The notes beneath the pieces are model-generated. The model searched no databases and was not told the DNA's origin. It saw nothing but the letters and a program-made list of their open reading frames with translations. A stretch of DNA of 64,000 bases from Alphaproteobacteria bacterium. GTDB taxonomy: Bacteria; Pseudomonadota; Alphaproteobacteria; UBA828. The stretch's first letter is position 1, and the number at the start of each line of letters is the position of its first letter. Below, one piece after another: positions 11,635-45,509 of this stretch. A program made the translations under genes and the position numbers. The stretch lies in contig CAXXVO010000007.1 of assembly GCA_963422645.2 (NCBI GenBank), positions 768,001 through 832,000 on the forward strand, given 5' to 3'.

Positions 11635-11680
11635 GGTTCTCTCGCCTATGGGTTGCACTCTCGCATGAGAGGAGCAGCCG

Positions 11681-12349
11681 GTGGGGTATTTCGGGTCGAA
11701 GGCGACGACCGGTCTGAGCCAGGCGCTGATTGCGCTGATGCCGCGGCACTCTGTCTATATCGAGAGCCATCTTGGGGGCGGGGCGCTGATGAAGCGCAAG
11801 CCTGCGGCCATGCGCTCGATCGGGATCGACCGCGACGAGCGGGCGCTTGAGGCCTTTGGCTGCGACTACCCGGTGGAGTTGGTGCACGGCTGCGCCCATT
11901 CCTTCCTGGCCTCGTTCCCGTTTCTGGGCCCGGAGCTGGTCTACAGCGATCCGCCCTATCTGCACGCGACCCGGCGTTCGTCGCAGCGCTACCGCTTCGA
12001 GTACGAGGAGGCCGACCACGTCGCGCTCCTCGAACTGCTCAAGGGTCTGCCCTGCCAGGTGATGGTCTCGGGCCACCCGTCTGCGCTCTATGACGAGCTG
12101 CTGGCGGGCTGGCGCCGGCTGGCGCTGCAGGTGACGACCCAGGCCCAGGTGCGGACCGAGGTCGTGTGGTTCAACTTCGCGCCTGACCGGGTGCACTGGG
12201 CGAGCTTCGCCGGCCGGAACTTCACCGAGCGCCAGTGCATCAAGCGCAAGGCGGCCAACTGGGGCCGGCGCTACGAGGCCATGCCGGCGGGCGAACGCCT
12301 GGCGGTGCTGGCCGCGATCATGGCCGTCGAGGCCGACGAGGGTTCGTGA
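11681..12349 (+). CDS. Compact Dam/D12-class N6-adenine DNA methyltransferase
   Basis: YFGSK, YIESHLGGGA (motif I), YSDPPY (motif IV). Confidence 0.85.
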   Translation: MGYFGSKATTGLSQALIALMPRHSVYIESHLGGGALMKRKPAAMRSIGIDRDERALEAFGCDYPVELVHGCAHSFLASFPFLGPELVYSDPPYLHATRRSSQRYRFEYEEADHVALLELLKGLPCQVMVSGHPSALYDELLAGWRRLALQVTTQAQVRTEVVWFNFAPDRVHWASFAGRNFTERQCIKRKAANWGRRYEAMPAGERLAVLAAIMAVEADEGS

Positions 12350-13887
12350 CAGTGTCGCGCTGGCACGAGGACCTCGCTGCCCACGACGAGGCCTTCGCGT
12401 GCCTGCAGGACCTTTTCACCCCACAATCCTTCGCAATGACCGCCGTCAAAGCCATTCGGGAATGGGGCCAGAGGTTGCTGCGCCTGAGCGCGGCCCTGGT
12501 CAAGGAGAACGACGCGCTGGAGCGGGAGAACGCCCGCTTGCGCGAGCGGATCGCCGAACTCGAGCGCAGCGCCGCGCTCGACAGCACCACCAGCTCCAAG
12601 CCGCCGGCCAGCGACGGTCTGAAGAAGAAGAGCGGTGACCGGGAGAAGCGCACCCGGAGCCAGCGCGGCAAGTCCGACAGGCCCAGTGGCGGCCAGCCGG
12701 GCCACAAGGGAACTACCCTGGAGCGGACCGCGACGCCCGACCATGTCGTCGATCATGATCCGTCCGCCTGTGAGGGCTGCGGCGCGCCGCTGTCGGACGC
12801 TGACCGTCACGGAGCCCCCGTCTGCCGGCAGGTCTTCGATGTGCCCGAGCCGCAGCCCCTCGAGGTCACCGAACATCGCGGCCATCGTTGCCTCTGCGCT
12901 GCCTGCGGCACCGTGACGACAGCCGTCTTCCCGAACGGCGTGAGCGCACCGGTCCAATACGGGCCGCGCATCACCGCGTGGGTGACCTACCTGCTGCACG
13001 CTCAGTTCATTCCCGAGAAGCGGGTCGCCGAGGTCATGAGCGACCTCTTCGCGGTCAAGCTCTCAACAGCCACCATCGTCGCCATGGGAAGGCGCACCGC
13101 CCGGCGCTTCGAGGGCTTCCTCGATCGCCTCGCGGAGATCATCCGCACCGCAGCCCCAGTCAAACACCTCGACGAGACCGGCATCCGCATCGCCGCCCGG
13201 ACCCATTGGCTCCATGTGCTGTGCACCCCGTTGCTCACCATCCTGCGCGTCGCCACCGGGCGCAGCCACATCGACGAGAAGCTCAACGGCATCGTCATCC
13301 ATGACGACTACGCCACCTACTTCGCTCTCGAGGGCGTGCGCCACGGGGCCTGCAACGCCCATCACCTGCGCGAGCTCCAAGCCCTCATCGAGATCGAGAA
13401 GGAAGACTGGGCAACGAGCACGCACCGGCTCCTCATCCGTGCCAACAGAGCCGCCCGCTTCGCCCACAAGAACGACCGCGACGTGCCCGCCTCACTGGTG
13501 GCCCGCATCTCGCGAGCCTGGGACCGCATCCTCGAACGTGCCATCGCCTCTCACGAAGAAATGCCACCGCTCCAGACCGGAAAGCGCGGACGACAAAAGC
13601 GCCGCATCGGTCACAACCTCGCCCTCCGACTCCAGAAGTACAAGGAGGGGTGCCTGCGCTTCCTCACCGATCCGCGAACCCCCTTCTCCAACAACGAGGC
13701 CGAGCGCGACCTCCGAATGGGCAAGCTGCGCCAGAAAATCTCAGGCGGCTTCCGCTCGATACAAGGCGCCCGCGACTTCGCAAACCTGCGATCCGTCATC
13801 GCCACCGCTCGAAAACAGCGCTGGAATGTCCTCGAAACCCTGGCGCACCCCGATCCAATCCAGCTGATCCCCGTATTGCGCTTCTGA
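12346..13887 (+). CDS. IS66-family transposase
   Basis: GTGA overlap with the MTase stop; SSKPPASD, LDETG, CNAHHLREL, SNNEAERDLR. Confidence 0.93.
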   Translation: MTVSRWHEDLAAHDEAFACLQDLFTPQSFAMTAVKAIREWGQRLLRLSAALVKENDALERENARLRERIAELERSAALDSTTSSKPPASDGLKKKSGDREKRTRSQRGKSDRPSGGQPGHKGTTLERTATPDHVVDHDPSACEGCGAPLSDADRHGAPVCRQVFDVPEPQPLEVTEHRGHRCLCAACGTVTTAVFPNGVSAPVQYGPRITAWVTYLLHAQFIPEKRVAEVMSDLFAVKLSTATIVAMGRRTARRFEGFLDRLAEIIRTAAPVKHLDETGIRIAARTHWLHVLCTPLLTILRVATGRSHIDEKLNGIVIHDDYATYFALEGVRHGACNAHHLRELQALIEIEKEDWATSTHRLLIRANRAARFAHKNDRDVPASLVARISRAWDRILERAIASHEEMPPLQTGKRGRQKRRIGHNLALRLQKYKEGCLRFLTDPRTPFSNNEAERDLRMGKLRQKISGGFRSIQGARDFANLRSVIATARKQRWNVLETLAHPDPIQLIPVLRF

Positions 13888-18906: not shown

Positions 18907-18935
18907 TTGACCTCATAGAGTTGCGGGACTATGGA
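18907..18935 (+). promoter_or_regulatory. Putative promoter of the MTase-transposase operon
   Basis: TTGACC-N17-TATGGA; the equivalent TTGACT-N17-TATGGG is restored in B when 10611-11638 is removed. Confidence 0.55.
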
Positions 18936-18963
18936 CTGCTCTCTCGCGTGACGGGAGCGGTCC

Positions 18964-19629
18964 ATGGGGTATTTCGGCTCGAAGGCGACAGCAGGTCTGT
19001 GCCAAGCGCTGATTGCGCTGATGCCGCCGCACTCCGTCTACATCGAAAGCCACCTTGGGGGCGGGGCGCTGATGAAGCGCAAGCCGCCGGCCGTGCGTTC
19101 GATCGGCATCGACCGCGATGCGCAGGCGCTCGAGGCCTTCGTCTGCGACTACCCGGTCGATCTGGTTCACGGCTGTGCCCATGACTTCCTGGCCTCGTTC
19201 CCGTTCCTGGGCCCGGAGCTGGTTTACAGCGATCCGCCCTATCTGCACGCGACCCGCCGCTCGGCGCAGCGCTACCGCTTCGAGTACGAGGAGGCCGGCC
19301 ACGTCGCGCTTCTCGCGCTGCTCAAGGCTCTGCCCTGCCAGGTCATGATCTCGGGCCATCCGTCGGCGCTCTATGACGAGGTGCTGGCGGGATGGCGCCG
19401 GCTGGCGCTGCAGGTCACGATCCAGGGTCTGGTGCGAACCGAGGTCGTCTGGTTCAACTACGCCCCCGACCGGATGCATTGGGCCAGCCACGCAGGCCGG
19501 AACTTCACCGACCGCCAGCGCATCAAGCGCAAGGCAGCCAACTGGGGCCGGCGCTACCAGGCCTTGCCGCCGGGCGAACGCCTCGCCGTGCTCGCCGCCA
19601 TGATGGCCGTCGAGGCCGAAGACACGTGA
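18964..19629 (+). CDS. Compact Dam/D12-class N6-adenine DNA methyltransferase (paralog of 11681-12349)
   Basis: YFGSK, YIESHLGGGA, YSDPPY. Confidence 0.85.
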   Translation: MGYFGSKATAGLCQALIALMPPHSVYIESHLGGGALMKRKPPAVRSIGIDRDAQALEAFVCDYPVDLVHGCAHDFLASFPFLGPELVYSDPPYLHATRRSAQRYRFEYEEAGHVALLALLKALPCQVMISGHPSALYDEVLAGWRRLALQVTIQGLVRTEVVWFNYAPDRMHWASHAGRNFTDRQRIKRKAANWGRRYQALPPGERLAVLAAMMAVEAEDT

Positions 19630-20923
19630 CGGTGTCGCACTGGCACGAAGACCTCGCCGCCCGTAACGAGGCCTTCTGCTGCCTGAAGGAGCTTCTCGAG
19701 CCATCATCCCTCGCAACCACTGTCGTCGTTGCCGTCCGGGAATGGGGGCAGGGGCTGCTGCGATCAGCCACCGCGCTCGCCCGGGAAAATGCCGCACTCG
19801 AGCAGGAGAACGCGGCCCTGCGCGAGCGCATCGCCGAACTCGAGCGCAGCGCGGCCCTCAACAGCACCACAAGCAGCAAGCCCCCCGCCAGCGACGGGCT
19901 CAAGAAGAAAAGCGGAGCCCAGAGGCGCACCCAAAGCCAGCGCGGAAAGTCCGGCGGGCCCAGTGGCGGCCAGCCCGGCCACAAGGGAACCACCCTCGCG
20001 CGGAGCGACAGCCCGGACCGTGTCGTCGATCACCACCCCTCCACCTGTTCCGGCTGTGGCGTCGAGCTCTCGGACGCCGACCGGCAAGGCGCGCCCGCCT
20101 GTCGGCAGGTCTTCGACGTACCCGAGCCGCAGCCTCTCGAGGTCACCGAACACCGCGCCCATCGCTGCCTCTGCGGCGCATGCGGCACGCTGACACGAGC
20201 CGCCTTCCCGCCGGGCGTCACCGCCCCGGTCCAGTACGGCCCTCGCATCACCGCTTGGGTGAGTTACCTGCTGTACGCCCAGTTCGTGCCCGAGAAGCGT
20301 CTGGCCGAACTCATGAGCGACATCTTCGCGGTGTCCATCTCCACTGCCACGATCGCCGCCATGGGCCGGCGCACAGCGCAGCGCTTCGAGGGCTTCCTCG
20401 ACCATGTCGCCGATCTGATCCGCACGCAGGCGCCGGTCAAGCACCTCGACGAGACCGGCCTGCGTATCGCCGCCCGTACCCGCTGGCTCCATGTGCTGTG
20501 CACCCCGTTGCTCACCGTCCTGCGCATCGGCGAGGGACGCGGCGATGTCGAAAAGAACCTGAAAGGCATCCTCGTCCACGACGACTTCGCCCCCTACTTC
20601 ACCATCAAGGGCGTCCGCCACGGCGCCTGCAACGCACATCACCTGCGCGAACTCCAGGCCCTGATCGACATCGAGAAGGAGGAATGGGCGGCGAGCATGC
20701 ACCGCCTGCTTCAGCGCGCGCGCAGGGCCGCCCGCTTCGCCCGTGAGAAAGACCGTCAAGTCCCCGCCTCCCTGGTGGCCCGCATCTCAAGGGCATGGGA
20801 CCGTATCCTCGAAGAAGCCATCGCCTTCCATGAGGCCCAACCGCCGCTCCAGATCGCAAAGCGAGGGCGAAAGAAACGCCGCATCGGCCACAACCTCGCG
20901 CGCCGCCTTCAAAAGCATAAGGA
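19626..20923 (+). pseudogene. IS66 transposase, C-terminally truncated
   Basis: Homologous to 12346-13887 up to RLQKHKD; NNEAER catalytic region missing. Confidence 0.88.
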
Positions 20924-21022
20924 TGAGCGTGCGCCCAGCATTTGATGGTGCGGTTTTCGGATTATTTGATGTTCGTGATGCGGCGCTTGGTTGATCTGCG
21001 AGAGCGGTGAGTGGCCTGGCTT

Positions 21023-21892
21023 TCATCGAGACCGCAGGAGCATCTCGTTCCAGTCCTTGGCGTGTCGTGGGCGCAACCTTTTCACCCTTGGATCGTTGAG
21101 CACGAGATGCTCGGCGGCAGTGTCGCCGGCGCTGTCTGCGTCGTAGGCACAGACGATGCGACGTGGCTTCCACTCCTTGATCCAGGGCGGGACCGAGCTG
21201 GCGATGCCGGCGGTTGAGGCGACGACGGCGCCGTTCTCGCGCGTCCCCTCGACGCGCAGGCTTCGTGCAGAGATGGCGTCGACGGCGCTCTCGGTGAGGA
21301 TGACGAGGGCGGGCTGGTTTCGGTCGCAGTGGAGCCAGAAGCCGCCACGCGCCTTGCGCGATCCCGGGGCCATGCCCCTGAAGCGTTTTGTTCCGGGCTG
21401 CGGCGCGGTGCCGAGGATCTCGGCGCCGGTCGTGTGCCCGCTGGCGTTTCGGCAGATGAAGACGGCGTTGATCCTGTCATCGGCGTAGAGGAGGCCTCGG
21501 CCGTGGCAGGCTTCGAGCACGTCGGTGCCGATAGCGCGTTGGCGGATGAGGGCGTCCCGGACCCTGGGCCAGGCGCGGGGACTGGGCCTTGGCAGCCGCA
21601 GGCGTCGCGGGGCGGCTGGGATGGTGGTGATCTCCCTCCGCCCCTCATGGCTTCCGAGGAAGCGGAGGGCTTCCGGGAAGCGGCATCCCGTCGCATGGAT
21701 GACGAGGTCGATGGCGCCACCCCCTCCCGTGCCGCGCAGGTGATCGAAGAACTTCTCGCCGTTGATGCTGATGACCGAGCCCCCGCGCTTGAAGCGCGCC
21801 CGGTCGGTCGGGTCTCTGCGGTAGCCGAGGGCGGCGGCGACCCGGTCGAGGGGGATGTTGCGGCAGGTGGCCAGGGGATCGCCGCCGCTCAT
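21023..21892 (-). CDS. Toprim-domain primase-like protein (DUF3991/Toprim type)
   Basis: GGGAIDLV N-terminal motif, LTESAVDAIS, AYDADSAG, KDWNE. Confidence 0.82.
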   Translation of the reverse strand: MSGGDPLATCRNIPLDRVAAALGYRRDPTDRARFKRGGSVISINGEKFFDHLRGTGGGGAIDLVIHATGCRFPEALRFLGSHEGRREITTIPAAPRRLRLPRPSPRAWPRVRDALIRQRAIGTDVLEACHGRGLLYADDRINAVFICRNASGHTTGAEILGTAPQPGTKRFRGMAPGSRKARGGFWLHCDRNQPALVILTESAVDAISARSLRVEGTRENGAVVASTAGIASSVPPWIKEWKPRRIVCAYDADSAGDTAAEHLVLNDPRVKRLRPRHAKDWNEMLLRSR

Positions 21893-21994
21893 TGCCGGGT
21901 CCCGGCGAAGGTCTGCTTGGAAGGGAGGCTGACGGCGTTCCCGTTCCTGTACCCTTCAACGCTTAAGAGTTCCGGGAACGGGAACGGGAACGCC

Positions 21995-22993
21995 TCATCC
22001 CGCACTTCCGTTGATGGCGGCAGGGGATTGCGGCTCCCGGTGCGCCTCGGCGGCTGCGAGGCGATAGCCACCCCTGGGCGCCCGTTCGATGCGCCCCTCC
22101 CTGGTGAGGCTCTCGATGGCGGCAACGACGGTGGCGTTGCGGGCAGCGGCGCGTGAGCGGATCTGGGCTTTCGAGAGCGGCTTTTCGGCCTGCTCGATCG
22201 CCTTGAAGACGCGCTGCTCGACGGTGGCGGGCTCGTGCCTGTCTTCATCTGCCGCGTCCTGGTGCAGACGGAAGGCCGGCCCATGTCCGCCGTCGACGAG
22301 TTCCAGCTCGATGTCGTTGAGGCCCCGGGCGTCGCGCTGCTCGACCGTCATGACGATCTTCTTGTCGCGCCGGCGCAGGTACAGATTTGAGTCACCCCAA
22401 GCGTGCAGCTCGCTGCTCCCGCGCAGGGCCTGCCCCGGCCGGGTGCCGCCGCTCTTGCGGGCGTGGTGGACGAGGAGGACGGCGGTTTCGAAGCGGCGCT
22501 GCAGTTCGCGCAGGAAGCCGAGGATGGGGGCGATCTCTGCGACGGCGTTCTCGTCGACGCTGTGCAGGCGGACCAGGGGATCGAGGATCAGGAGGCGCGG
22601 TTCGATGCGCTCCACGGTCTGCTGCAGGCGTTGACGGTCGCCGGGCCGGTCGAGACGCAGGGTGGGCACGTCGATGACGGCGATGTCGAGTTCGTCGAAG
22701 GGGGTGGCGGCGGCGCGGGCGATCCCCTGCAGACGCTTGCGCACCCTGTGGCCGGCGTCCTCGGCGGCGAAGAGCAGCACGGTGCCGCTTGCGCTGGGGC
22801 GGTAGTGGCGCAGGCATGGGACGCCGGTGGCCACGGCGACGGCGAGATCGAGCGCGAGCAGGGATTTGCCGCACTTGGGCTCGCCGCCGACGATGCCCAC
22901 GGCCTGCTCGGCCCACAGCGTGTCCACCATCCACTGTTGCGCCCGGGGGCGATCCTCGAGCTGCATCGGCGCCCGTGTCGGGAAGCCCTTCAC
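21995..22993 (-). CDS. RecA-fold RepA/AAA_25 helicase with C-terminal winged HTH
   Basis: GGEPKCGKS, AAED, ILDPLVRLH, VHHARK, RGSSEL; GTGA overlap with the upstream ATPase. Confidence 0.85.
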   Translation of the reverse strand: MKGFPTRAPMQLEDRPRAQQWMVDTLWAEQAVGIVGGEPKCGKSLLALDLAVAVATGVPCLRHYRPSASGTVLLFAAEDAGHRVRKRLQGIARAAATPFDELDIAVIDVPTLRLDRPGDRQRLQQTVERIEPRLLILDPLVRLHSVDENAVAEIAPILGFLRELQRRFETAVLLVHHARKSGGTRPGQALRGSSELHAWGDSNLYLRRRDKKIVMTVEQRDARGLNDIELELVDGGHGPAFRLHQDAADEDRHEPATVEQRVFKAIEQAEKPLSKAQIRSRAAARNATVVAAIESLTREGRIERAPRGGYRLAAAEAHREPQSPAAINGSAG

Positions 22994-23823
22994 CGCCGTG
23001 CCCTCTTCGGCTTGGCGGGCTCGCCCAGGATCTCCATGAAGAGCTTCTCGTCGAGAACCTCGCGGTTCTTCTCGGCGCCGGCGGCGAGCAGCATGTCGCC
23101 CATGACGGTAAGCGCCCTGGGGTTGCCGCCGGCGTGGGTGACCAGGGTGTCCTTGAGCTCTGCGCTCATGAGGCCCGGATTGCCGGCCTGCTCGACCAGA
23201 TGGTCGAGCAGGGCCGCGAGGTCGCCGGCGTCTGCCTGGGTCATGACCAGGCGCTGGCGCAGGCGCGAGGCGATGGGCTGCAAGTCGGGCTGGCGGAGCC
23301 TGTCGATCAGGCGGCTGTCGCCGGCGAAGACGACCGAGAGGATGGCGCGCGAGTCGAAGTCGGTGGACGCCAGCAGGCGGATCTCGGAGATCACCGAGGG
23401 CAGCAGCTCCTGGGCCTCGTCGATGAGCACCACGGGCCGCATGCGGGTGTCGTCGACATGGGTGAGCCATCGCTCGCGCAGGTTTTTGAAGCTGGCCCAG
23501 CGGTTGTTGTACATCAGGTCGACGCCGAACATCCCGCCGATCTCGCGGTAGAAGTCGGACAGCCTGGAAGAGGGGTGGGTGATGGCACAGACCCTGAGCC
23601 CGTCCGAGCGGCCGAGGCGGTCGGCGAGCACGCGCAACGCCACGCTCTTTCCGGTGCCGGGCTCGCCGGCGATCAACGCGAAGCCGCCCTGGCGCACAAG
23701 ATGATGCTCGATTCTGAGGCAGAAGCTGTCGACGGCGGGGCTCACCATGAGGCTGTCGACCGGAAGGTCGGTGGCGAAGGGGTTCCATTTGAGCCCGTAG
23801 AAGGTGAGCAGCTCGCGGTTCAT
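22990..23823 (-). CDS. ExeA-like AAA ATPase (transposition helper)
   Basis: YGLKWNPF, GEPGTGKS, LIDEAQ, SRL; ATGA overlap with the transposase. Confidence 0.88.
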   Translation of the reverse strand: MNRELLTFYGLKWNPFATDLPVDSLMVSPAVDSFCLRIEHHLVRQGGFALIAGEPGTGKSVALRVLADRLGRSDGLRVCAITHPSSRLSDFYREIGGMFGVDLMYNNRWASFKNLRERWLTHVDDTRMRPVVLIDEAQELLPSVISEIRLLASTDFDSRAILSVVFAGDSRLIDRLRQPDLQPIASRLRQRLVMTQADAGDLAALLDHLVEQAGNPGLMSAELKDTLVTHAGGNPRALTVMGDMLLAAGAEKNREVLDEKLFMEILGEPAKPKRARR

Positions 23824-25298
23824 GACGGATCTCCCTGATCGTCGTCCTCGCCCGGACCGGGCGTCTTGTTATGGGGTACCCAGGCCGGCGGCAGGCCTGT
23901 TGCGGCCTGGGCGTCGAGCACGCCCTTGAGCAGCGGCGGAAGTTCGCCGACGCCCGCGCTGGCGCCGCCATGGTCGCTGCCGGGTCTCGCAGGACGGCGG
24001 ACGCCATCGGCGTTGCCGCGCTTGTCGAGGGGGTACAGCGTGCACAGCCGCTCGCCGCTTCGGCCTTCCACCAGATCGACGCCGCTGAGGTCCCAGCGCG
24101 CATAGCGGACCCAGAGCGTCCTCAGGTGGCGCCACGGCTGTGGCACCTGGTAGCGGATGCCCTCGACCGAGACGGTGCCGTCCGAGCGCCTGAGCGTGCG
24201 CTTCCTGGCGATGCGGAAGGCCGCCTTGAGCTCGTCCGAGGCGGGGCAGGGCCTCGATGCCTTGACGCTCCCGGCGAGGCGTTCATGCGGCGTCATGCCG
24301 AGCTCGCGGTGCACCCGCCGATGGTAGTCCTGCTCCAGCCAGGCTATGGTGGCGTCGTTGAGCATCTTCAGGGTGAGCGCGTCGACGCCTTCGAGCTGAG
24401 CCATCAGGCGGCCCTCGACCGTGCCCCAGAACGACTCGATTTTTCCATTTTGATGGGGGCTGTAAGCGAGTGTCGTGGCCCCCACGATGCCGATGAGGCG
24501 GTGCAAGCCCTCCTCGACCTCGCCCGCCGTCATCGGCCCGCCGTTGTCGGTCAGCAGGGACCTGGGCAAGTCCCTCTTCATGAAGGCCTGACAGAGCCCG
24601 TGGACGAAGACCTCGGCGGTCTCCTCCAGGTACCACTGCAGGTGGCAGCCAAGCCTGGAGTGGTCGTCGAGGAAGCCGAGCAGGATGGGCGTCTGCCATT
24701 CGCCCGACGCCGTCAGCACGCGGCGCTTGCCGTGGTGGAAGTCCCCGTGCCACAGCGCGTGACTGCGAGACACCTCGTAGCTAAGGACCTCGCGGGCTTC
24801 GACCGCCGGCTTGTCCTCACCCTCGTGCCACTTCCTGGGGCGCTCGCGCACCAGGCCGCGATTGCGCATCGCCCGCGTCAGCGTCGCGTAGGACGGCATC
24901 GGGCCGAGCTCGGGATGGGTCGCAACATGAGCCTTGAGGGTCTCGTAGTGGAGCTGCGCCGCCCACGAGGGATGGACCCGGTACTGCTCGCGCAGCGCCG
25001 CGATCAGCCCCGCCGACATGGACCGCTCGCGGCCGACGTCGGTCCGAGGCTTCCGGCGCAGCGCCTTGACCGGGTCCTGCTCCTCTGCCCGCGCCCGGTA
25101 GTACCAGCGCTCGATCGTCGAGGCCGCAAAGCGCACCGGCCCCTTGCCCGACGGGTGCTCCCAGTCGCGCTGCGACAGACGCTCGAACTCGGCCCCCAGC
25201 TGGCCTGCAGGCGGCGGTGAAGCCAGAAGCGGCCCCACCACCGCAAAGCGCAGCCGGGCCCACTTCTCGCGCCTGGCGCCTGCGTCGTCCTTGTCCAT
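23820..25298 (-). CDS. DDE (rve) transposase with Mu-type C-terminal domain
   Basis: WHGDFHH, DDHSR, TDNGG, NGKIESFW, DGTVSVEGIRY. Confidence 0.9.
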   Translation of the reverse strand: MDKDDAGARREKWARLRFAVVGPLLASPPPAGQLGAEFERLSQRDWEHPSGKGPVRFAASTIERWYYRARAEEQDPVKALRRKPRTDVGRERSMSAGLIAALREQYRVHPSWAAQLHYETLKAHVATHPELGPMPSYATLTRAMRNRGLVRERPRKWHEGEDKPAVEAREVLSYEVSRSHALWHGDFHHGKRRVLTASGEWQTPILLGFLDDHSRLGCHLQWYLEETAEVFVHGLCQAFMKRDLPRSLLTDNGGPMTAGEVEEGLHRLIGIVGATTLAYSPHQNGKIESFWGTVEGRLMAQLEGVDALTLKMLNDATIAWLEQDYHRRVHRELGMTPHERLAGSVKASRPCPASDELKAAFRIARKRTLRRSDGTVSVEGIRYQVPQPWRHLRTLWVRYARWDLSGVDLVEGRSGERLCTLYPLDKRGNADGVRRPARPGSDHGGASAGVGELPPLLKGVLDAQAATGLPPAWVPHNKTPGPGEDDDQGDPS

Positions 25299-25347
25299 TC
25301 CGGCATCCCTCCCTCGCCGCATCGGAGAGATGCCCATGTAGAACGCC

Positions 25348-25965
25348 CTATCCGGGCGTGACAGGAACACTTTCTGCGGGCGGCGCCGAGCCATCGCCGA
25401 GCCCGCAATAGCCCGTCCACGGCTTGAACCAGATCAGGCTCAGGAACAGACGCTCACCGAAGCGTCCGCCCCGCATCTGCCGCAGCACGAAGAGCAGCGG
25501 CACCTCCTCGGGTGGCATCACCAGTTCGCCACGCTTCGCTCCCCAGGGCTCCGTCGCCGGGAACGCCTCCAGCCACCACTTCCGCCAGCGGCGCAGTGTG
25601 GCGACCGAGACCCCCCACTTCCGCTTGATCGTCTGCAACCGCACCCCGCCTCTCAGAACCAGTGCACTCAACAGAACGAACAGGGCGCCCAGATAAAAGC
25701 GGCGCCCGAAGAATCGTACCGATGGTGGGGTCGCTCGCAGGCGGCAATCCGCGCAGCAGAAGCTGAACCGCCGCGTGCCCTCTTCCCTCAACTCGGCTGC
25801 CAGACCGTACGGCTTGCGCGGATACGTCGCGCTGTGCAGCTTGCCGGGGCAGTGTCGGCAGCCCGCCTCGCGGCAGCGCGCCGCCTCGGCCTCATCGACC
25901 TCGCGCAGCCAGGCCCAGACCAGGGCGTTGCAAAGCATGGAGTGGCGGAAAATGTTGTGCGACAT
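25348..25965 (-). CDS. Zn-finger/HTH transposon accessory protein
   Basis: CRHC, CCADCR..TPPSVRF, GVSVATLRRWRKWW. Confidence 0.75.
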   Translation of the reverse strand: MSHNIFRHSMLCNALVWAWLREVDEAEAARCREAGCRHCPGKLHSATYPRKPYGLAAELREEGTRRFSFCCADCRLRATPPSVRFFGRRFYLGALFVLLSALVLRGGVRLQTIKRKWGVSVATLRRWRKWWLEAFPATEPWGAKRGELVMPPEEVPLLFVLRQMRGGRFGERLFLSLIWFKPWTGYCGLGDGSAPPAESVPVTPG

Positions 25966-26115
25966 TGGGGCCGTCTCTGGCGATTGTGACCGTCACCACG
26001 AGACAAAGCCCCCCGGCGAACTTCTTGCAAGTTCGCCGAGGGGCACCCGCCCCAAAACCTCAACAAATCCGAGCGGATCAGGCCCCGATCCCCGCTGAAA
26101 GACCGCGCGCGCTCA

Positions 26116-26589
26116 CCCGTGGCGGTCCAGGAGAAAATAGCGCAGATGCGCGCCGACCAGACGATGCAGCCCGAGATAGTGGTGGCGCGCGACGAACTCG
26201 TTCCACAGCCCGCCCTCCTCCTTGCCCGCCGCAATCGACAGGCGCAGCGGCATCAGCGCGGCCAGGTCCTCCGCGATCGCCGCGGCCGGCGCCGTCCGCT
26301 CGCTCCGGGCCATCGCCTCCTGCGGCCCCCGCACCTGCGCCTCGTCCCGCGCCGGCAGGGTCAGGATGCCCAGCCGCTCCAACTCCTCCAGCATCCGCAG
26401 GCAGACCGCGACACGGTTCCGCCCGCTCGGCGCGCGCCAGTTCAAATGCTCGCAGATCGTGTGCCCGAGCTCGTTGCGGCTGATCGCCGGAAACAGCGCC
26501 ACCGTCTCCTGGATGTCGGCAATCTGCCGGCGGGTCAGACGTCTGCCGAAAAAGGTCGTCGACTTCAGCGCGGTGATGCGGGGGTCCAT
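26116..26589 (-). pseudogene. DUF4338 (DruA-like) domain N-terminus of an IS4-type transposase, truncated
   Basis: SRNELGHTICEHLNW, WNEFVARHHYLG..G..LRY; cut by the transposon end at 26115. Confidence 0.7.
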
Positions 26590-26759
26590 GGGCCGGCTCC
26601 ACTGACAGGGGGACAGCCACAGTGTGCCAAAGCACACGCCGCCGGTCAATCCCCCTCGTGCGGGAAACGCCGAGACCGACAATCCACACAAGAAATCAAC
26701 TCGTTACGACACCACCAAAAAAACCCCGGAACAATCTTCGCGCCAAATGAATGCCATTG
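26116..26759 (-). mobile_element. Left-end remnant of an IS4-like element
   Basis: Minus-strand end CAATGGCATTCATTTGG at 26759, upstream of the truncated ORF. Confidence 0.55.
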
Positions 26760-36662: not shown

Positions 36663-37544
36663 TCAGGCGCGGTCGGGACCGGGGCGGGCGCCGGGGCGGC
36701 ACGGGCGTTCGAGTTCGGCCTTCCACCATTCGGGGTCTTCGACGGCGCGTTCTGCGGCGTCGTATCCGTCGTGACCGGTCCATCTTCCGGGGTCGGCGTC
36801 GGCGTACCATCGGCCTGCGCCGCGGTGTCGTTCGAGGGCGTCGTCGATGCGGGCGACCTGGTCCGCCGGGCGTCCCCGGCAGAAGCGCTCGAAGAAGGCG
36901 TTGAGGCGGCATCTGGGGCAGCGTCCGCAGGGCTCTGCCGCGGCGGTGCACCGGTAGGTGAGCGCCTCCAGCCCGGGCGGGAGCAGGGCCTGGAGCATGA
37001 AGCGCCCGGCGACGGGTCCGAAGGGGTCGTCCCGCGACGGCGGCCACTGCGCGCCGTCCTCCCAGCCGGGGAAGAAGGGGAGTTCCATGGGGACGGCGGT
37101 GCGCGCGCGGTAGACGGGATACCAGTACATGCGGTGCATGTCGTCGGCGGTGCCCCACGAGGTGATGCCGAGCATCACCCGGTCGGCGCGGTGGCGCTCG
37201 GCCTCGTCGGCGTGGGTTGCGTACCGGTCGAGGCCCCAGGGGCCGAATGTGGGGTCGCAGACGCCCTCCCACCCTCTCCCGTCCCTGATCGGGTATTCGG
37301 CGCCGGCGTCGAGGTCGAGGCGCAGGGCGTCGCGGCTGACGTGGCGCACGGGCCGGACGTTGCGGGAGAGCCAGTCTGCGACGGCCTCGCTTGCGGCCTG
37401 CTCGCGGGCGATGCGCTCCGGCAGCTCGCGGGCCGGTTCGCGGTAGTAGGAGAGGACGACCTCGTCTTCGGTCTCGCGCAGGACGAGGAGGGCGAGGGCG
37501 GTGCTGTCGATGCCGCCGCCTGCGGGGACGAGGGTGCGGCGCAT
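36663..37544 (-). CDS. QueC-like PP-loop ATPase
   Basis: N-terminal AGGGIDST; C-terminal LTYRC....PCGRCPRC zinc cluster. Confidence 0.6.
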   Translation of the reverse strand: MRRTLVPAGGGIDSTALALLVLRETEDEVVLSYYREPARELPERIAREQAASEAVADWLSRNVRPVRHVSRDALRLDLDAGAEYPIRDGRGWEGVCDPTFGPWGLDRYATHADEAERHRADRVMLGITSWGTADDMHRMYWYPVYRARTAVPMELPFFPGWEDGAQWPPSRDDPFGPVAGRFMLQALLPPGLEALTYRCTAAAEPCGRCPRCRLNAFFERFCRGRPADQVARIDDALERHRGAGRWYADADPGRWTGHDGYDAAERAVEDPEWWKAELERPCRPGARPGPDRA

Positions 37545-37549
37545 CGCGA

Positions 37550-38320: not shown

Positions 38321-38341
38321 GGGGTTTCCTTTCGCGATCGC

Positions 38342-39699: not shown

Positions 39700-39798
39700 T
39701 GAGCGTGCGCCCAGCATTTGATGGTGCGGTTTTCGGATTATTTGATGTTCGTGATGCGGCGCTTGGTTGATCTGCGAGAGCGGTGAGTGGCCTGGCTT

Positions 39799-40668
39799 TC
39801 ATCGAGACCGCAGGAGCATCTCGTTCCAGTCCTTGGCGTGTCGTGGGCGCAACCTTTTCACCCTTGGATCGTTGAGCACGAGATGCTCGGCGGCAGTGTC
39901 GCCGGCGCTGTCTGCGTCGTAGGCACAGACGATGCGACGTGGCTTCCACTCCTTGATCCAGGGCGGGACCGAGCTGGCGATGCCGGCGGTTGAGGCGACG
40001 ACGGCGCCGTTCTCGCGCGTCCCCTCGACGCGCAGGCTTCGTGCAGAGATGGCGTCGACGGCGCTCTCGGTGAGGATGACGAGGGCGGGCTGGTTTCGGT
40101 CGCAGTGGAGCCAGAAGCCGCCACGCGCCTTGCGCGATCCCGGGGCCATGCCCCTGAAGCGTTTTGTTCCGGGCTGCGGCGCGGTGCCGAGGATCTCGGC
40201 GCCGGTCGTGTGCCCGCTGGCGTTTCGGCAGATGAAGACGGCGTTGATCCTGTCATCGGCGTAGAGGAGGCCTCGGCCGTGGCAGGCTTCGAGCACGTCG
40301 GTGCCGATAGCGCGTTGGCGGATGAGGGCGTCCCGGACCCTGGGCCAGGCGCGGGGACTGGGCCTTGGCAGCCGCAGGCGTCGCGGGGCGGCTGGGATGG
40401 TGGTGATCTCCCTCCGCCCCTCATGGCTTCCGAGGAAGCGGAGGGCTTCCGGGAAGCGGCATCCCGTCGCATGGATGACGAGGTCGATGGCGCCACCCCC
40501 TCCCGTGCCGCGCAGGTGATCGAAGAACTTCTCGCCGTTGATGCTGATGACCGAGCCCCCGCGCTTGAAGCGCGCCCGGTCGGTCGGGTCTCTGCGGTAG
40601 CCGAGGGCGGCGGCGACCCGGTCGAGGGGGATGTTGCGGCAGGTGGCCAGGGGATCGCCGCCGCTCAT
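39799..40668 (-). CDS. Toprim-domain primase-like protein
   Basis: Same translation as 21023-21892. Confidence 0.82.
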   Translation of the reverse strand: MSGGDPLATCRNIPLDRVAAALGYRRDPTDRARFKRGGSVISINGEKFFDHLRGTGGGGAIDLVIHATGCRFPEALRFLGSHEGRREITTIPAAPRRLRLPRPSPRAWPRVRDALIRQRAIGTDVLEACHGRGLLYADDRINAVFICRNASGHTTGAEILGTAPQPGTKRFRGMAPGSRKARGGFWLHCDRNQPALVILTESAVDAISARSLRVEGTRENGAVVASTAGIASSVPPWIKEWKPRRIVCAYDADSAGDTAAEHLVLNDPRVKRLRPRHAKDWNEMLLRSR

Positions 40669-40770
40669 TGCCGGGTCCCGGCGAAGGTCTGCTTGGAAGG
40701 GAGGCTGACGGCGTTCCCGTTCCTGTACCCTTCAACGCTTAAGAGTTCCGGGAACGGGAACGGGAACGCC

Positions 40771-41769
40771 TCATCCCGCACTTCCGTTGATGGCGGCAGG
40801 GGATTGCGGCTCCCGGTGCGCCTCGGCGGCTGCGAGGCGATAGCCACCCCTGGGCGCCCGTTCGATGCGCCCCTCCCTGGTGAGGCTCTCGATGGCGGCA
40901 ACGACGGTGGCGTTGCGGGCAGCGGCGCGTGAGCGGATCTGGGCTTTCGAGAGCGGCTTTTCGGCCTGCTCGATCGCCTTGAAGACGCGCTGCTCGACGG
41001 TGGCGGGCTCGTGCCTGTCTTCATCTGCCGCGTCCTGGTGCAGACGGAAGGCCGGCCCATGTCCGCCGTCGACGAGTTCCAGCTCGATGTCGTTGAGGCC
41101 CCGGGCGTCGCGCTGCTCGACCGTCATGACGATCTTCTTGTCGCGCCGGCGCAGGTACAGATTTGAGTCACCCCAAGCGTGCAGCTCGCTGCTCCCGCGC
41201 AGGGCCTGCCCCGGCCGGGTGCCGCCGCTCTTGCGGGCGTGGTGGACGAGGAGGACGGCGGTTTCGAAGCGGCGCTGCAGTTCGCGCAGGAAGCCGAGGA
41301 TGGGGGCGATCTCTGCGACGGCGTTCTCGTCGACGCTGTGCAGGCGGACCAGGGGATCGAGGATCAGGAGGCGCGGTTCGATGCGCTCCACGGTCTGCTG
41401 CAGGCGTTGACGGTCGCCGGGCCGGTCGAGACGCAGGGTGGGCACGTCGATGACGGCGATGTCGAGTTCGTCGAAGGGGGTGGCGGCGGCGCGGGCGATC
41501 CCCTGCAGACGCTTGCGCACCCTGTGGCCGGCGTCCTCGGCGGCGAAGAGCAGCACGGTGCCGCTTGCGCTGGGGCGGTAGTGGCGCAGGCATGGGACGC
41601 CGGTGGCCACGGCGACGGCGAGATCGAGCGCGAGCAGGGATTTGCCGCACTTGGGCTCGCCGCCGACGATGCCCACGGCCTGCTCGGCCCACAGCGTGTC
41701 CACCATCCACTGTTGCGCCCGGGGGCGATCCTCGAGCTGCATCGGCGCCCGTGTCGGGAAGCCCTTCAC
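40771..41769 (-). CDS. RepA/AAA_25 helicase
   Basis: Same translation as 21995-22993. Confidence 0.85.
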   Translation of the reverse strand: MKGFPTRAPMQLEDRPRAQQWMVDTLWAEQAVGIVGGEPKCGKSLLALDLAVAVATGVPCLRHYRPSASGTVLLFAAEDAGHRVRKRLQGIARAAATPFDELDIAVIDVPTLRLDRPGDRQRLQQTVERIEPRLLILDPLVRLHSVDENAVAEIAPILGFLRELQRRFETAVLLVHHARKSGGTRPGQALRGSSELHAWGDSNLYLRRRDKKIVMTVEQRDARGLNDIELELVDGGHGPAFRLHQDAADEDRHEPATVEQRVFKAIEQAEKPLSKAQIRSRAAARNATVVAAIESLTREGRIERAPRGGYRLAAAEAHREPQSPAAINGSAG

Positions 41770-42599
41770 CGCCGTGCCCTCTTCGGCTTGGCGGGCTCGC
41801 CCAGGATCTCCATGAAGAGCTTCTCGTCGAGAACCTCGCGGTTCTTCTCGGCGCCGGCGGCGAGCAGCATGTCGCCCATGACGGTAAGCGCCCTGGGGTT
41901 GCCGCCGGCGTGGGTGACCAGGGTGTCCTTGAGCTCTGCGCTCATGAGGCCCGGATTGCCGGCCTGCTCGACCAGATGGTCGAGCAGGGCCGCGAGGTCG
42001 CCGGCGTCTGCCTGGGTCATGACCAGGCGCTGGCGCAGGCGCGAGGCGATGGGCTGCAAGTCGGGCTGGCGGAGCCTGTCGATCAGGCGGCTGTCGCCGG
42101 CGAAGACGACCGAGAGGATGGCGCGCGAGTCGAAGTCGGTGGACGCCAGCAGGCGGATCTCGGAGATCACCGAGGGCAGCAGCTCCTGGGCCTCGTCGAT
42201 GAGCACCACGGGCCGCATGCGGGTGTCGTCGACATGGGTGAGCCATCGCTCGCGCAGGTTTTTGAAGCTGGCCCAGCGGTTGTTGTACATCAGGTCGACG
42301 CCGAACATCCCGCCGATCTCGCGGTAGAAGTCGGACAGCCTGGAAGAGGGGTGGGTGATGGCACAGACCCTGAGCCCGTCCGAGCGGCCGAGGCGGTCGG
42401 CGAGCACGCGCAACGCCACGCTCTTTCCGGTGCCGGGCTCGCCGGCGATCAACGCGAAGCCGCCCTGGCGCACAAGATGATGCTCGATTCTGAGGCAGAA
42501 GCTGTCGACGGCGGGGCTCACCATGAGGCTGTCGACCGGAAGGTCGGTGGCGAAGGGGTTCCATTTGAGCCCGTAGAAGGTGAGCAGCTCGCGGTTCAT
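41766..42599 (-). CDS. ExeA-like AAA ATPase
   Basis: Same translation as 22990-23823. Confidence 0.88.
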   Translation of the reverse strand: MNRELLTFYGLKWNPFATDLPVDSLMVSPAVDSFCLRIEHHLVRQGGFALIAGEPGTGKSVALRVLADRLGRSDGLRVCAITHPSSRLSDFYREIGGMFGVDLMYNNRWASFKNLRERWLTHVDDTRMRPVVLIDEAQELLPSVISEIRLLASTDFDSRAILSVVFAGDSRLIDRLRQPDLQPIASRLRQRLVMTQADAGDLAALLDHLVEQAGNPGLMSAELKDTLVTHAGGNPRALTVMGDMLLAAGAEKNREVLDEKLFMEILGEPAKPKRARR

Positions 42600-44074
42600 G
42601 ACGGATCTCCCTGATCGTCGTCCTCGCCCGGACCGGGCGTCTTGTTATGGGGTACCCAGGCCGGCGGCAGGCCTGTTGCGGCCTGGGCGTCGAGCACGCC
42701 CTTGAGCAGCGGCGGAAGTTCGCCGACGCCCGCGCTGGCGCCGCCATGGTCGCTGCCGGGTCTCGCAGGACGGCGGACGCCATCGGCGTTGCCGCGCTTG
42801 TCGAGGGGGTACAGCGTGCACAGCCGCTCGCCGCTTCGGCCTTCCACCAGATCGACGCCGCTGAGGTCCCAGCGCGCATAGCGGACCCAGAGCGTCCTCA
42901 GGTGGCGCCACGGCTGTGGCACCTGGTAGCGGATGCCCTCGACCGAGACGGTGCCGTCCGAGCGCCTGAGCGTGCGCTTCCTGGCGATGCGGAAGGCCGC
43001 CTTGAGCTCGTCCGAGGCGGGGCAGGGCCTCGATGCCTTGACGCTCCCGGCGAGGCGTTCATGCGGCGTCATGCCGAGCTCGCGGTGCACCCGCCGATGG
43101 TAGTCCTGCTCCAGCCAGGCTATGGTGGCGTCGTTGAGCATCTTCAGGGTGAGCGCGTCGACGCCTTCGAGCTGAGCCATCAGGCGGCCCTCGACCGTGC
43201 CCCAGAACGACTCGATTTTTCCATTTTGATGGGGGCTGTAAGCGAGTGTCGTGGCCCCCACGATGCCGATGAGGCGGTGCAAGCCCTCCTCGACCTCGCC
43301 CGCCGTCATCGGCCCGCCGTTGTCGGTCAGCAGGGACCTGGGCAAGTCCCTCTTCATGAAGGCCTGACAGAGCCCGTGGACGAAGACCTCGGCGGTCTCC
43401 TCCAGGTACCACTGCAGGTGGCAGCCAAGCCTGGAGTGGTCGTCGAGGAAGCCGAGCAGGATGGGCGTCTGCCATTCGCCCGACGCCGTCAGCACGCGGC
43501 GCTTGCCGTGGTGGAAGTCCCCGTGCCACAGCGCGTGACTGCGAGACACCTCGTAGCTAAGGACCTCGCGGGCTTCGACCGCCGGCTTGTCCTCACCCTC
43601 GTGCCACTTCCTGGGGCGCTCGCGCACCAGGCCGCGATTGCGCATCGCCCGCGTCAGCGTCGCGTAGGACGGCATCGGGCCGAGCTCGGGATGGGTCGCA
43701 ACATGAGCCTTGAGGGTCTCGTAGTGGAGCTGCGCCGCCCACGAGGGATGGACCCGGTACTGCTCGCGCAGCGCCGCGATCAGCCCCGCCGACATGGACC
43801 GCTCGCGGCCGACGTCGGTCCGAGGCTTCCGGCGCAGCGCCTTGACCGGGTCCTGCTCCTCTGCCCGCGCCCGGTAGTACCAGCGCTCGATCGTCGAGGC
43901 CGCAAAGCGCACCGGCCCCTTGCCCGACGGGTGCTCCCAGTCGCGCTGCGACAGACGCTCGAACTCGGCCCCCAGCTGGCCTGCAGGCGGCGGTGAAGCC
44001 AGAAGCGGCCCCACCACCGCAAAGCGCAGCCGGGCCCACTTCTCGCGCCTGGCGCCTGCGTCGTCCTTGTCCAT
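42596..44074 (-). CDS. DDE transposase
   Basis: Same translation as 23820-25298. Confidence 0.9.
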   Translation of the reverse strand: MDKDDAGARREKWARLRFAVVGPLLASPPPAGQLGAEFERLSQRDWEHPSGKGPVRFAASTIERWYYRARAEEQDPVKALRRKPRTDVGRERSMSAGLIAALREQYRVHPSWAAQLHYETLKAHVATHPELGPMPSYATLTRAMRNRGLVRERPRKWHEGEDKPAVEAREVLSYEVSRSHALWHGDFHHGKRRVLTASGEWQTPILLGFLDDHSRLGCHLQWYLEETAEVFVHGLCQAFMKRDLPRSLLTDNGGPMTAGEVEEGLHRLIGIVGATTLAYSPHQNGKIESFWGTVEGRLMAQLEGVDALTLKMLNDATIAWLEQDYHRRVHRELGMTPHERLAGSVKASRPCPASDELKAAFRIARKRTLRRSDGTVSVEGIRYQVPQPWRHLRTLWVRYARWDLSGVDLVEGRSGERLCTLYPLDKRGNADGVRRPARPGSDHGGASAGVGELPPLLKGVLDAQAATGLPPAWVPHNKTPGPGEDDDQGDPS

Positions 44075-44123
44075 TCCGGCATCCCTCCCTCGCCGCATCG
44101 GAGAGATGCCCATGTAGAACGCC

Positions 44124-44741
44124 CTATCCGGGCGTGACAGGAACACTTTCTGCGGGCGGCGCCGAGCCATCGCCGAGCCCGCAATAGCCCGTCCACGGCT
44201 TGAACCAGATCAGGCTCAGGAACAGACGCTCACCGAAGCGTCCGCCCCGCATCTGCCGCAGCACGAAGAGCAGCGGCACCTCCTCGGGTGGCATCACCAG
44301 TTCGCCACGCTTCGCTCCCCAGGGCTCCGTCGCCGGGAACGCCTCCAGCCACCACTTCCGCCAGCGGCGCAGTGTGGCGACCGAGACCCCCCACTTCCGC
44401 TTGATCGTCTGCAACCGCACCCCGCCTCTCAGAACCAGTGCACTCAACAGAACGAACAGGGCGCCCAGATAAAAGCGGCGCCCGAAGAATCGTACCGATG
44501 GTGGGGTCGCTCGCAGGCGGCAATCCGCGCAGCAGAAGCTGAACCGCCGCGTGCCCTCTTCCCTCAACTCGGCTGCCAGACCGTACGGCTTGCGCGGATA
44601 CGTCGCGCTGTGCAGCTTGCCGGGGCAGTGTCGGCAGCCCGCCTCGCGGCAGCGCGCCGCCTCGGCCTCATCGACCTCGCGCAGCCAGGCCCAGACCAGG
44701 GCGTTGCAAAGCATGGAGTGGCGGAAAATGTTGTGCGACAT
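44124..44741 (-). CDS. Zn-finger/HTH transposon accessory protein
   Basis: Same translation as 25348-25965. Confidence 0.75.
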   Translation of the reverse strand: MSHNIFRHSMLCNALVWAWLREVDEAEAARCREAGCRHCPGKLHSATYPRKPYGLAAELREEGTRRFSFCCADCRLRATPPSVRFFGRRFYLGALFVLLSALVLRGGVRLQTIKRKWGVSVATLRRWRKWWLEAFPATEPWGAKRGELVMPPEEVPLLFVLRQMRGGRFGERLFLSLIWFKPWTGYCGLGDGSAPPAESVPVTPG

Positions 44742-44891
44742 TGGGGCCGTCTCTGGCGATTGTGACCGTCACCACGAGACAAAGCCCCCCGGCGAACTTC
44801 TTGCAAGTTCGCCGAGGGGCACCCGCCCCAAAACCTCAACAAATCCGAGCGGATCAGGCCCCGATCCCCGCTGAAAGACCGCGCGCGCTCA

Positions 44892-45506: not shown

Positions 45507-45509
45507 CAC

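Follow-up and report, generated by a model that had tools for sequence, protein, structure and literature searches.

We analysed a 64,000-nucleotide stretch of contig CAXXVO010000007.1 (positions 768,001 to 832,000) from the alphaproteobacterial assembly GCA_963422645.2 (GTDB lineage UBA828); this whole stretch is called the window, and its own numbering is used below. It contains two copies of a 5192-bp transposon that carries, in addition to transposase and ATPase genes, genes for a RepA-type helicase-fold ATPase and a DnaG-fold mini-primase. Gene order and similarity among relatives show these two genes to behave as exchangeable accessory modules in a slot behind the ATPase gene. The reading that we prefer, while giving it somewhat less than an even chance, is that this slot couples transposition to DNA synthesis, so that the element would start its own replication when moving. 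The coding part of the element, together with a palindrome that adjoins the helicase gene, is laid out as follows.

25348..25965, minus strand: gene 1, 205 amino acids (aa), Cys-rich (CxxC...CxxC), weak HTH_23 match
23820..25298, minus strand: gene 2, DDE (rve-type) transposase; longest open reading frame (ORF) 23820-25394; rve, rve_3 and HTH_32 matches under the Pfam cut-offs
22990..23823, minus strand: gene 3, AAA_22 ATPase, 277 aa, E 6e-19, ATGA overlap with gene 2
21995..22993, minus strand: gene 4, AAA_25 RecA-fold ATPase, 332 aa, GTG start, E 2.5e-36, GTGA overlap with gene 3
21932..21995, minus strand: hexamer-repeat palindrome or hairpin, (GTTCCC)3 ... loop ... (GGGAAC)2, from the gene 4 stop codon; minimum free energy (MFE) -38.4 kcal/mol
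21023..21892, minus strand: gene 5, DUF3991 + Toprim_2 protein, 289 aa, last gene of the element

Pfam and NCBIfam scans confirmed the named domains of the five minus-strand ORFs. An earlier sequence-only reading of this DNA had described five co-oriented genes (zinc/helix-turn-helix, DDE, ATPase, RepA/AAA_25 and Toprim), with 4-nt stop/start overlaps linking the middle three, and both features were recovered as described.

For gene 4, the closest solved structure by sequence was RSF1010 RepA (1g8y, E 1.9e-8). The AlphaFold model (pLDDT 88) gave the same protein as its best fold match (E 3e-12, TM 0.73 on the target), followed by DnaB and RadA. In an alignment of 33 sequences with identity down to 34%, residues K43, E78/D79, D138, H176/H177 and R191 were invariant, and the Walker A, catalytic Glu/Asp pair, Walker B, HHxRK and LRGSS motifs showed no variation. 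These comprise the residue set of a hexameric helicase (Walker A Lys, catalytic Glu, Walker B Asp, sensor His and Arg finger), roles that we presume by analogy with RSF1010 RepA. The C-terminal ~60 residues fold as a winged helix in the model, and some relatives have precomputed GntR or MarR_2 matches in this tail region. Model and alignment together show gene 4 as a predicted RSF1010-RepA-type helicase-fold ATPase with a complete catalytic motif set. Its subfamily comprises 459 representative clusters at E < 1e-30, and none of the 120 listed is named. Searches of plasmid records with gene 4 returned only 4 weak tblastn matches. In viral contigs the helicase had relatives only at 24-36% best-segment identity, so no phage vehicle is indicated.

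Gene 5 had no sequence match to any solved structure. With its AlphaFold model (pLDDT 88), Foldseek returned at E <= 0.001 only DnaG-family primases and primase-helicases among the matches listed (at least 40), including Aquifex and E. coli DnaG, T7 gp4, Twinkle and the T4 primosome; nuclease and topoisomerase folds appeared only at E > 0.01 (nucleases at E >= 0.013). The Toprim acidic residues characteristic of primases, E201, D251 and D253, were invariant across 32 sequences. The N-terminal domain weakly matched the DnaG zinc-binding domain (1d0q, E 0.05) and lacks conserved Cys pairs, the CHC2 ligands being absent; its invariant residues are D50, H51 and H66. There is no helicase-binding C-terminal domain, the protein ending ~10 residues past the Toprim fold. 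The modelled structure thereby shows a putative DnaG-fold mini-primase with an intact Toprim E...DxD motif.

The ratio of nonsynonymous to synonymous substitution rates (dN/dS) was 0.24-0.41 for the helicase gene and 0.33-0.58 for the primase gene, compared with 0.27-0.35 for the transposase gene. Purifying selection on the helicase and primase genes is as strong as on the transposase gene. The assignment of genes 4 and 5 to a RepA-type helicase fold and a DnaG-type primase fold, already made from the letters of the sequence, is borne out by the fold matches.

Genes 1 to 3 correspond to the core of Tn6049: gene 1 was 41% identical to the first Tn6049 gene (E 2e-33), gene 2 was 47.7% identical to its transposase (E 1e-129) and gene 3 was 50% identical to its ATPase, 'gspA' (E 3e-94). 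The sequence-only reading had taken the arrangement to lack a family name; by these identities the element is instead assigned as a variant member of the Tn6049 family, which is named and has no studied mechanism. The three core genes stand in identical order on one strand in both elements, and both end in TG..CA with an inverted repeat that is short and imperfect, and duplicate 4-5 bp of target. Both are also multi-copy and carry the 'gspA' ATPase gene, and Tn6049 occurs in addition on the Pseudomonas aeruginosa plasmid pHS87a. There it is annotated as a 181-aa 'transposase', an 'IS481 family transposase', an 'AAA family ATPase' and a 90-aa hypothetical protein. The last of these is unrelated to gene 4 (E 0.61). 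Tn6049 differs in lacking the helicase, the hexamer palindrome and the primase, and has a small fourth gene instead; in the window element, the place of a ~60-90-aa protein with an acidic C-terminal tip is taken by AAA_25, palindrome and Toprim. Tn6049 is described as a 3.5-kb element present in 12 copies in Cupriavidus metallidurans CH34, all with 'gspA' (PMC2864759), with 12-bp imperfect inverted repeats opening with TG and 4-bp direct repeats (PMC4739549), both according to the available parts of these sources. In the literature searched, which was descriptive only and did not extend to subscription journals, including the first description, no transposition mechanism for Tn6049 was found.

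Individual assignments within this core vary in firmness. Gene 1, for which there was also a lead from its features toward DUF6431, might bind the ends or act in regulation, which is a guess. Gene 2 probably starts at M33 (25298) and would then not overlap gene 1, as in relatives the matching position is preceded by stop codons. It scored 109.9 bits against NCBIfam IS481 (cut-off 224) and 38 bits against NCBIfam IS21 (cut-off 160), and fell below Pfam Mu-transpos_C. IS481 is the PGAP label for the Tn6049 transposase and denotes a single-gene insertion sequence (IS) of ~1 kb, in contrast to the five-gene, 5.2-kb element here. Gene 3 is the counterpart of the MuB/TniB/TnsC-type helpers.

We surveyed relatives of the element, referred to below as lineage A. 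A search with the transposase gave 28 loci, of which 25 had genes 1-4, or as much of them as fits on the contig, in unchanged order, and only three had the Toprim gene; the loci came from metagenome-assembled genomes (MAGs) labelled Alphaproteobacteria, Gemmatimonadota, Acidimicrobiales and Chloroflexota. A four-gene form of 4.4 kb, ending shortly past gene 4, was present in many copies in two MAGs. Its ends read TGAGC(G/A)GG..CTCA, and of 16 copies from the two relatives most show clean 5-bp duplications. A profile search extending to ~50% identity, with clustering at 95% transposase DNA identity, gave 52 lineage-A clusters. AAA_25 was present in all 15 close clusters (at least 60% transposase identity), where the Toprim gene was present in 4, clearly absent from 6 and not assessable in 5 on contigs too short to judge. 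Among the 37 distant clusters (47-55% identity), 4 had AAA_25 and 33, including Tn6049 itself, had neither gene. As far as this sampling goes, one clade has long and stably kept the helicase, the family as a whole can do without it, and the primase is sporadic. The wider family shows what the sequence-only reading had named as counting against its interpretation, namely homologues that mostly lack the two genes or carry them as variable modules.

Searches with genes 4 and 5 brought up elements with other backbones. Gene 4 led to four lineage-B elements, in which AAA_25 was 69-73% identical while transposase and ATPase were only 25-29% identical; lineage B combines a Mu-transpos_C DDE enzyme and a TniB-like AAA_22 ATPase with an unrelated first gene. 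DNA similarity between lineages A and B (75-82%) starts within ~30 nt of the AAA_25 start codon and spans the gene, and in several elements it also takes in the non-coding DNA behind. Gene 5 had homologues at 42-56% identity in lineage B and in a third lineage, C. It was the fourth and last gene in 17 lineage-B clusters without AAA_25. The IS21-like lineage C consists of a 254-aa ORF, a Mu-transpos_C_2 DDE enzyme, IstB_IS21 (E 1.7e-53) and, last, the Toprim gene. Elements of lineages B and C alike end in TG..CA, are flanked by ~5-bp duplications and occur many times per genome, and their first genes matched no Pfam family. In every relative, the module genes lie on the same strand and in the same slot.

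Two further lines point to exchange. In a primase tree of 15 rows, the lineage-A sequences did not stay together but formed two groups with good support, and a lineage-B sequence joined one of these (98/96); the tree therefore points to at least two acquisitions of the primase by lineage A. Synonymous divergence (dS) between neighbouring genes of the same element pair differed two- to three-fold, which may be taken as a further sign of mosaicism. When the lineage-B ATPase was compared with 300 genomes of the class, only matches at 27-36% identity were found, one per genome in all but one; these are probably other AAA_22 proteins. At one locus (L036:5430-7931), a lineage-A element is cut after ~98 transposase codons and followed by a Toprim gene 68% identical to that of lineage C; here an element of one family has probably inserted into an element of the other.

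In lineage-A elements without AAA_25, the slot behind the ATPase gene is not empty. At 25 of 31 such loci it encodes a protein of 59-91 aa that is homologous among the loci and to the 90-aa ORF of Tn6049, with a helical core ..FE.HY..QI.RYY.. and without a Pfam family. Positions of this protein are exemplified by the following loci.

L171:7279-7458, relative of the window element: slot protein
L205:7291-7518, relative of the window element: slot protein
L217:2622-2849, relative of the window element: slot protein
L214:7246-7518, relative of the window element: slot protein; 21 more loci in addition to these four

The C-termini of the slot protein read DDPPF, DDEIPF, DDIPF, DDVPF or DDDLPEF, a kind of tip found in 20 of 1823 background segments. 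As a reference for the tip of single-stranded DNA-binding protein (SSB) we used the host SSB, whose gene lies inside the window (51528-51992, plus strand, 154 aa, PF00436 at 130.6 bits) and whose product ends in DLDDDIPF. By this likeness, the slot protein may mimic the SSB tip. That tip docks PriA, DnaG and chi. PriC likewise binds the SSB C-terminus (PMC5778457, available part).

The variable filling of the slot raises the question of whether its genes are cargo, with the ATPase and Toprim proteins making up a module for defence, counter-defence or addiction that resembles OLD/Gabija or PARIS, or with the ATPase serving as a target selector in the manner of TnsE/TniQ. Transposons of this superfamily often bear defence cargo, including Toprim nucleases, according to the available part of PMC8649781, and the modules are swappable and dispensable. 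Nevertheless, we regard cargo as very unlikely: the Toprim fold matches primases rather than OLD-type nucleases, and the ATPase is RepA/DnaB-like rather than of the ABC type, so that, as judged by fold, the pair found in OLD, Gabija or PARIS is not present. In relatives, moreover, the helicase and primase genes mostly occur singly, and, as typical cargo would not, they always take up a single position that is coupled to the ATPase gene.

Relatives of gene 5 also occur outside transposons. We found 97 plasmid records with relatives at 30-38% identity, the alignments spanning 94-98% of gene 5. Among the 25 plasmid matches listed were seven MobV relaxase fusions, one helicase-domain protein and four 'plasmid recombination' enzymes; other listed relatives were stand-alone DUF3991+TOPRIM genes, one of them adjoining VirB-type (type IV secretion) genes. 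Plasmid pAES1 (2.9 kb) holds only RepL and a MobV-Toprim fusion. The plasmid mobilisation and conjugation primases thus share the DUF3991 + Toprim architecture with gene 5, but theirs are fused to relaxases or stand beside type IV secretion genes, whereas gene 5 is free-standing and last in its operon.

These plasmid records, with their MobV fusions and VirB-type neighbour, are what would be expected if the primase, perhaps with the helicase, primed the complementary strand upon single-strand entry by conjugation or transformation and so aided establishment. The occurrence of the family across MAGs labelled as different phyla would fit as well. We nonetheless judge this role improbable, since no relaxase or oriT-like feature was noticed in the element and the primase gene is tied translationally and positionally to the transposition operon in three lineages; it would also leave the helicase and the SSB-tip protein of the same slot unexplained. 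Across loci L011-L035 and L040-L070, transposases 74-84% identical to that of the window occurred in MAGs labelled as four phyla, and proteins 62-89% identical to the helicase were present in MAGs with several further labels (Acidobacteriota, Gammaproteobacteria and Binatia). Many of the carrier MAGs come from one sampling series, so this pattern may reflect cross-phylum spread or mis-binning of repeats.

The helicase gene is accompanied by the palindrome throughout. An inverted repeat of 53-69 nt lies at or over the AAA_25 stop codon in 26 of 26 loci (20 and 6 distant ones, lineage B included), with arms of two or three hexamer units each. The units vary among elements while the arms stay complementary (GTTCCC/GGGAAC, GTTACC/GGTAAC, GTTTCC/GGAAAC, GGTTCCC/GGGAACC and CTTCCC/GGGAAG), and the MFEs range from -23 to -47 kcal/mol; both the compensatory pattern and these energies come from single-sequence folds. 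A consensus fold of 19 palindromes retained only 4 pairs, MAFFT slipping register among the hexamer repeats. The palindrome was absent from the three-gene relatives examined, and its 24 occurrences in the genome all lie inside the element. No Rfam family reached its gathering score in L012, L023 or L041, and the element gave only chance-level miRNA matches. The pattern could fit a hairpin and a double-stranded binding site alike.

In the window element, the primase gene sits between the palindrome and a distal end with CATCAAA motifs. Toprim-less elements have a second conserved, hairpin-forming non-coding motif, GATCGGCCCnTGGCCGnAAGCT...GCTTACGGCCATG, downstream of the palindrome (L012:9400-9470, with equivalents in L011, L021, L022, L023, L041, L050, L061 and L066). 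The motif had no Rfam match in L012, L023 or L041. The window element is without this motif and has the primase gene in its place.

Palindrome and helicase could also be parts of a minimal replicon, in which an excised circle or tandem replicates itself from the palindrome as origin with a RepA-like initiator-helicase and a Toprim primase, much as in RSF1010 without RepC; this would raise copy number or permit survival after transfer. The inseparability of helicase and adjoining palindrome in 26 of 26 loci, RSF1010 RepA as the best structural match of gene 4 and the primase relatives on small plasmids such as the 2.9-kb pAES1 all agree with such a replicon, as do the transposases 74-84% identical across four labelled phyla, which imply some vehicle. 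However, every copy seen is a chromosomal insertion, and the element had no megablast match in 72,556 plasmid records. Four-gene forms do without the primase, and primase-bearing lineage B and C forms do without the helicase and without such a palindrome. The contigs of four public sequencing runs also contained no end-to-end joint, a weak argument given that contigs hide rare forms. Taken together, we consider self-replication unlikely.

We return to the coupling of transposition to DNA synthesis, which is the simplest common denominator of the slot contents: an SSB-tip protein, helicase plus palindrome, primase, or both enzymes. Replicative transposition of Mu requires the PriA primosome, according to the available part of PMC5778457. 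All three lineages combine a DDE enzyme with an AAA+ helper and lack both a TnsA-type second nuclease and a resolvase; strand transfer would therefore leave forked joints in need of replication, as in Mu, or the element would have to be copied out. In plain Tn6049-type members, the small SSB-like protein with its acidic DDPPF tip might recruit the host restart machinery. The window variant might instead supply a self-loading helicase, its winged helix binding the palindrome or the fork, and the element would bring along its own primase because a helicase that is not DnaB cannot recruit host DnaG. In this way the whole 5-kb element would be copied efficiently in any host that it reaches.

More tentative is the extension of this coupling to all three lineages (Tn6049-like, Mu/TniB-like and IS21-like), which may share a distal replication-coupling slot with four alternative fillings. 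With similar reserve, the fillings would be a small SSB-tip-mimic adaptor that brings in the host's restart primosome, a self-loading RepA-type helicase with a loading palindrome, a DnaG-type mini-primase, and helicase plus primase.

Several points weigh against the coupling of transposition to DNA synthesis. Neither an activity nor a transposition product or replication intermediate was observed. The family can do without the modules, both of which are missing from 33 of 37 distant clusters, and primase-less four-gene forms are multi-copy and active; helicase-only and primase-only elements both thrive, so the pairing need not be required. The host has PriA (630 bits), so the element fills no host gap, and a host lacking replication restart is ruled out as an explanation. 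The closest annotated relatives of the primase, at 30-38% identity, are transfer-linked, being parts of MobV relaxases or neighbours of type IV secretion genes. Since the N-terminal domain of gene 5 is without the DnaG zinc ligands, template recognition and even primase activity are uncertain. An operator bound as duplex, or a terminator, would account for the palindrome equally well, and the SSB-tip interpretation hangs on a short motif. Lastly, the lineage B and C loci were found with helicase or primase queries, which biases their frequencies.

Were the extension to three lineages correct, these bacterial DDE transposons would bring part or all of their own primosome, and the choice of module would set their dependence on host restart proteins and hence the breadth of their spread across phyla. 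How the joint is handed over to the replisome after replicative or copy-out DDE transposition is known in detail only for Mu, through host PriA-dependent restart, and active, widespread small transposons with a variable slot may make this hand-over experimentally tractable. The group also displays a modular swap of replication genes among transposon backbones that are not related to each other. Nearly identical elements turn up in MAGs assigned to different phyla, and the record names of several of these MAGs indicate an association with sponges; this bears on how insertion-sequence blooms come about in symbiont genomes.

The element itself was delimited by self-comparison of the window and by its distribution in the source genome. 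Its copies and ends are as follows.

20924..26115, genes on the minus strand: copy 1, without target duplication, with a truncated gene on either side, one for an IS66-family transposase and the other DruA-like
39700..44891, genes on the minus strand: copy 2, a simple insertion with a 4-bp ACGG duplication inside a single open frame
25966..26115, minus strand: gene-proximal end, terminal 5'-TGAGCGCGCGC and then the untranslated leader of gene 1; same end in relatives
20924..21022, minus strand: gene-distal end, two CATCAAA motifs and terminal ...GCGCACGCTCA-3'

The two copies were 100% identical across 5192 bp, and the identity breaks off exactly at both termini, TGAGCG...CGCTCA, as the sequence-only reading had stated. 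The TGAGCGCGCGC end pairs with the opposite terminus as an ~11-bp inverted repeat, and the CATCAAA motifs of the distal end are common to the distal ends of relatives. That reading had also seen a different gene truncated at all four junctions; this was correct for copy 1, where an IS66-family transposase gene and a DruA-like gene are cut, but not for copy 2, which interrupts a single frame: by arithmetic, the ORF beginning at 37391 resumes in frame past 44895.

The source genome comprises 5.9 Mb in 23 contigs. In blastn searches, the unit matched 44 pieces at 99.4-100% identity on 15 of the 23 contigs and one more at 89%. The copies comprised 8 intact ones, 4 full-length ones split by another insertion and ~20 truncated pieces, and the ends numbered at least 26 on the left and 24 on the right. 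Most copies other than the two in the window were 5189-5190 bp long. Among the 12 full-length copies, five had a direct duplication of 4-5 bp (ATGT, ACGG, GGGAA, CCTGC and CAAGG) and seven had none. The duplication-less copies are most simply explained by recombination between copies in a repeat-filled genome; pairing them by their flanks gave 4-5-nt matches that are too common in GC-rich DNA to tell recombination from chance. The many near-identical copies here and the clean 5-bp duplications in relatives establish that the unit is mobile as a whole, in line with what had been claimed for it. The 5.2-kb unit is an active transposon that moves whole and has undergone a recent burst in this genome.

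An assembly error or chimera behind the second copy or the five-gene layout has a negligible probability. The 44 near-identical pieces are spread over 15 contigs, and the five-gene 5.2-kb form occurs in other MAGs (L034/L049) with proteins 73-91% identical. A partial contig (L040) has matching genes 3-5, and public contigs of 5185-5209 bp carry the primase. Three studies contributed six public runs whose contigs contain the stretch (0.96-0.97 of sampled words). The genome-wide copies, the other MAGs and the public runs together refute assembly error as the origin of the second copy.

Some details of the surroundings were also recorded. At position 24492, within the transposase gene, the window copies hold 3 extra nt relative to contigs of four public runs, that is, one extra codon. 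Near copy 1 lie two diverged (77-86%) copies of an IS66-family element, 11646-12943 and 18929-20220, one of which is cut by copy 1; the flanks of copy 1 are 19392-20923 and 26116-26691, the DruA/DUF4338-like gene being cut on the side opposite the IS66-family element. Uninterrupted versions of both flanks were seen elsewhere at loose ends of public contigs. The frame split by copy 2 (37391-39699 and 44896-46540, plus strand) has ~1300 codons and no Pfam match, and a weak Phage_Mu_F-like match lies at 45510-46445 in another frame than this ORF. The window has a G+C content of 67.7%, so that long spurious ORFs are plentiful.

No publication on DDE transposons that carry genes for a RepA-type helicase or a DnaG-type primase came up in our literature search, which did not extend to subscription journals. 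By this search, the form with both enzymes, the sharp module boundary, the IS21-like primase carrier and the SSB-tip slot protein are apparently undescribed. The nearest known systems each share part of the arrangement. Mu, Tn552, Tn5053/Tn402 and Tn7 resemble the element in their TG..CA ends, ~5-bp duplications and combination of an rve-type DDE enzyme with an AAA_22/TniB-type ATPase. They use host helicase and primase; Tn552 and Tn5053 have a resolvase, and Tn7 has TnsA and target selectors. The window element differs from Tn552, Tn5053 and Tn7 in having neither resolvase, TnsA nor target selectors. With Mu it may also share the replication of the strand-transfer joint, which there is carried out by a primosome (PMC5778457, available part).

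IS21 likewise pairs a DDE enzyme with an AAA+ helper (IstA and IstB), and a homologue of gene 5 stands last in lineage C, which is IS21-like. Classical IS21 consists of just two genes, and the ATPase of the window element is AAA_22, not IstB. RSF1010 shares the RepA fold and motif set with gene 4 and supplies its own primase along with its helicase, since host DnaG is not recruited. It differs in that RepB' is not a Toprim primase, in having the initiator RepC and iterons, and in being a plasmid rather than a DDE transposon. SCCmec carries a pair of Cch and primase proposed for replication steps of its mobility (PMC7581432), and the IS excision enhancer IEE is a PrimPol-helicase that assists mobile DNA (bioRxiv 10.1101/2023.06.07.543989). 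As far as the available parts of these two sources go, SCCmec moves by serine recombinases and has no DDE/AAA+ operon with a RepA- or DnaG-type protein inside, and the IEE PrimPol is encoded outside the IS, with no such enzymes within a DDE/AAA+ operon, whereas in the window element both replication genes form part of the transposition operon itself.

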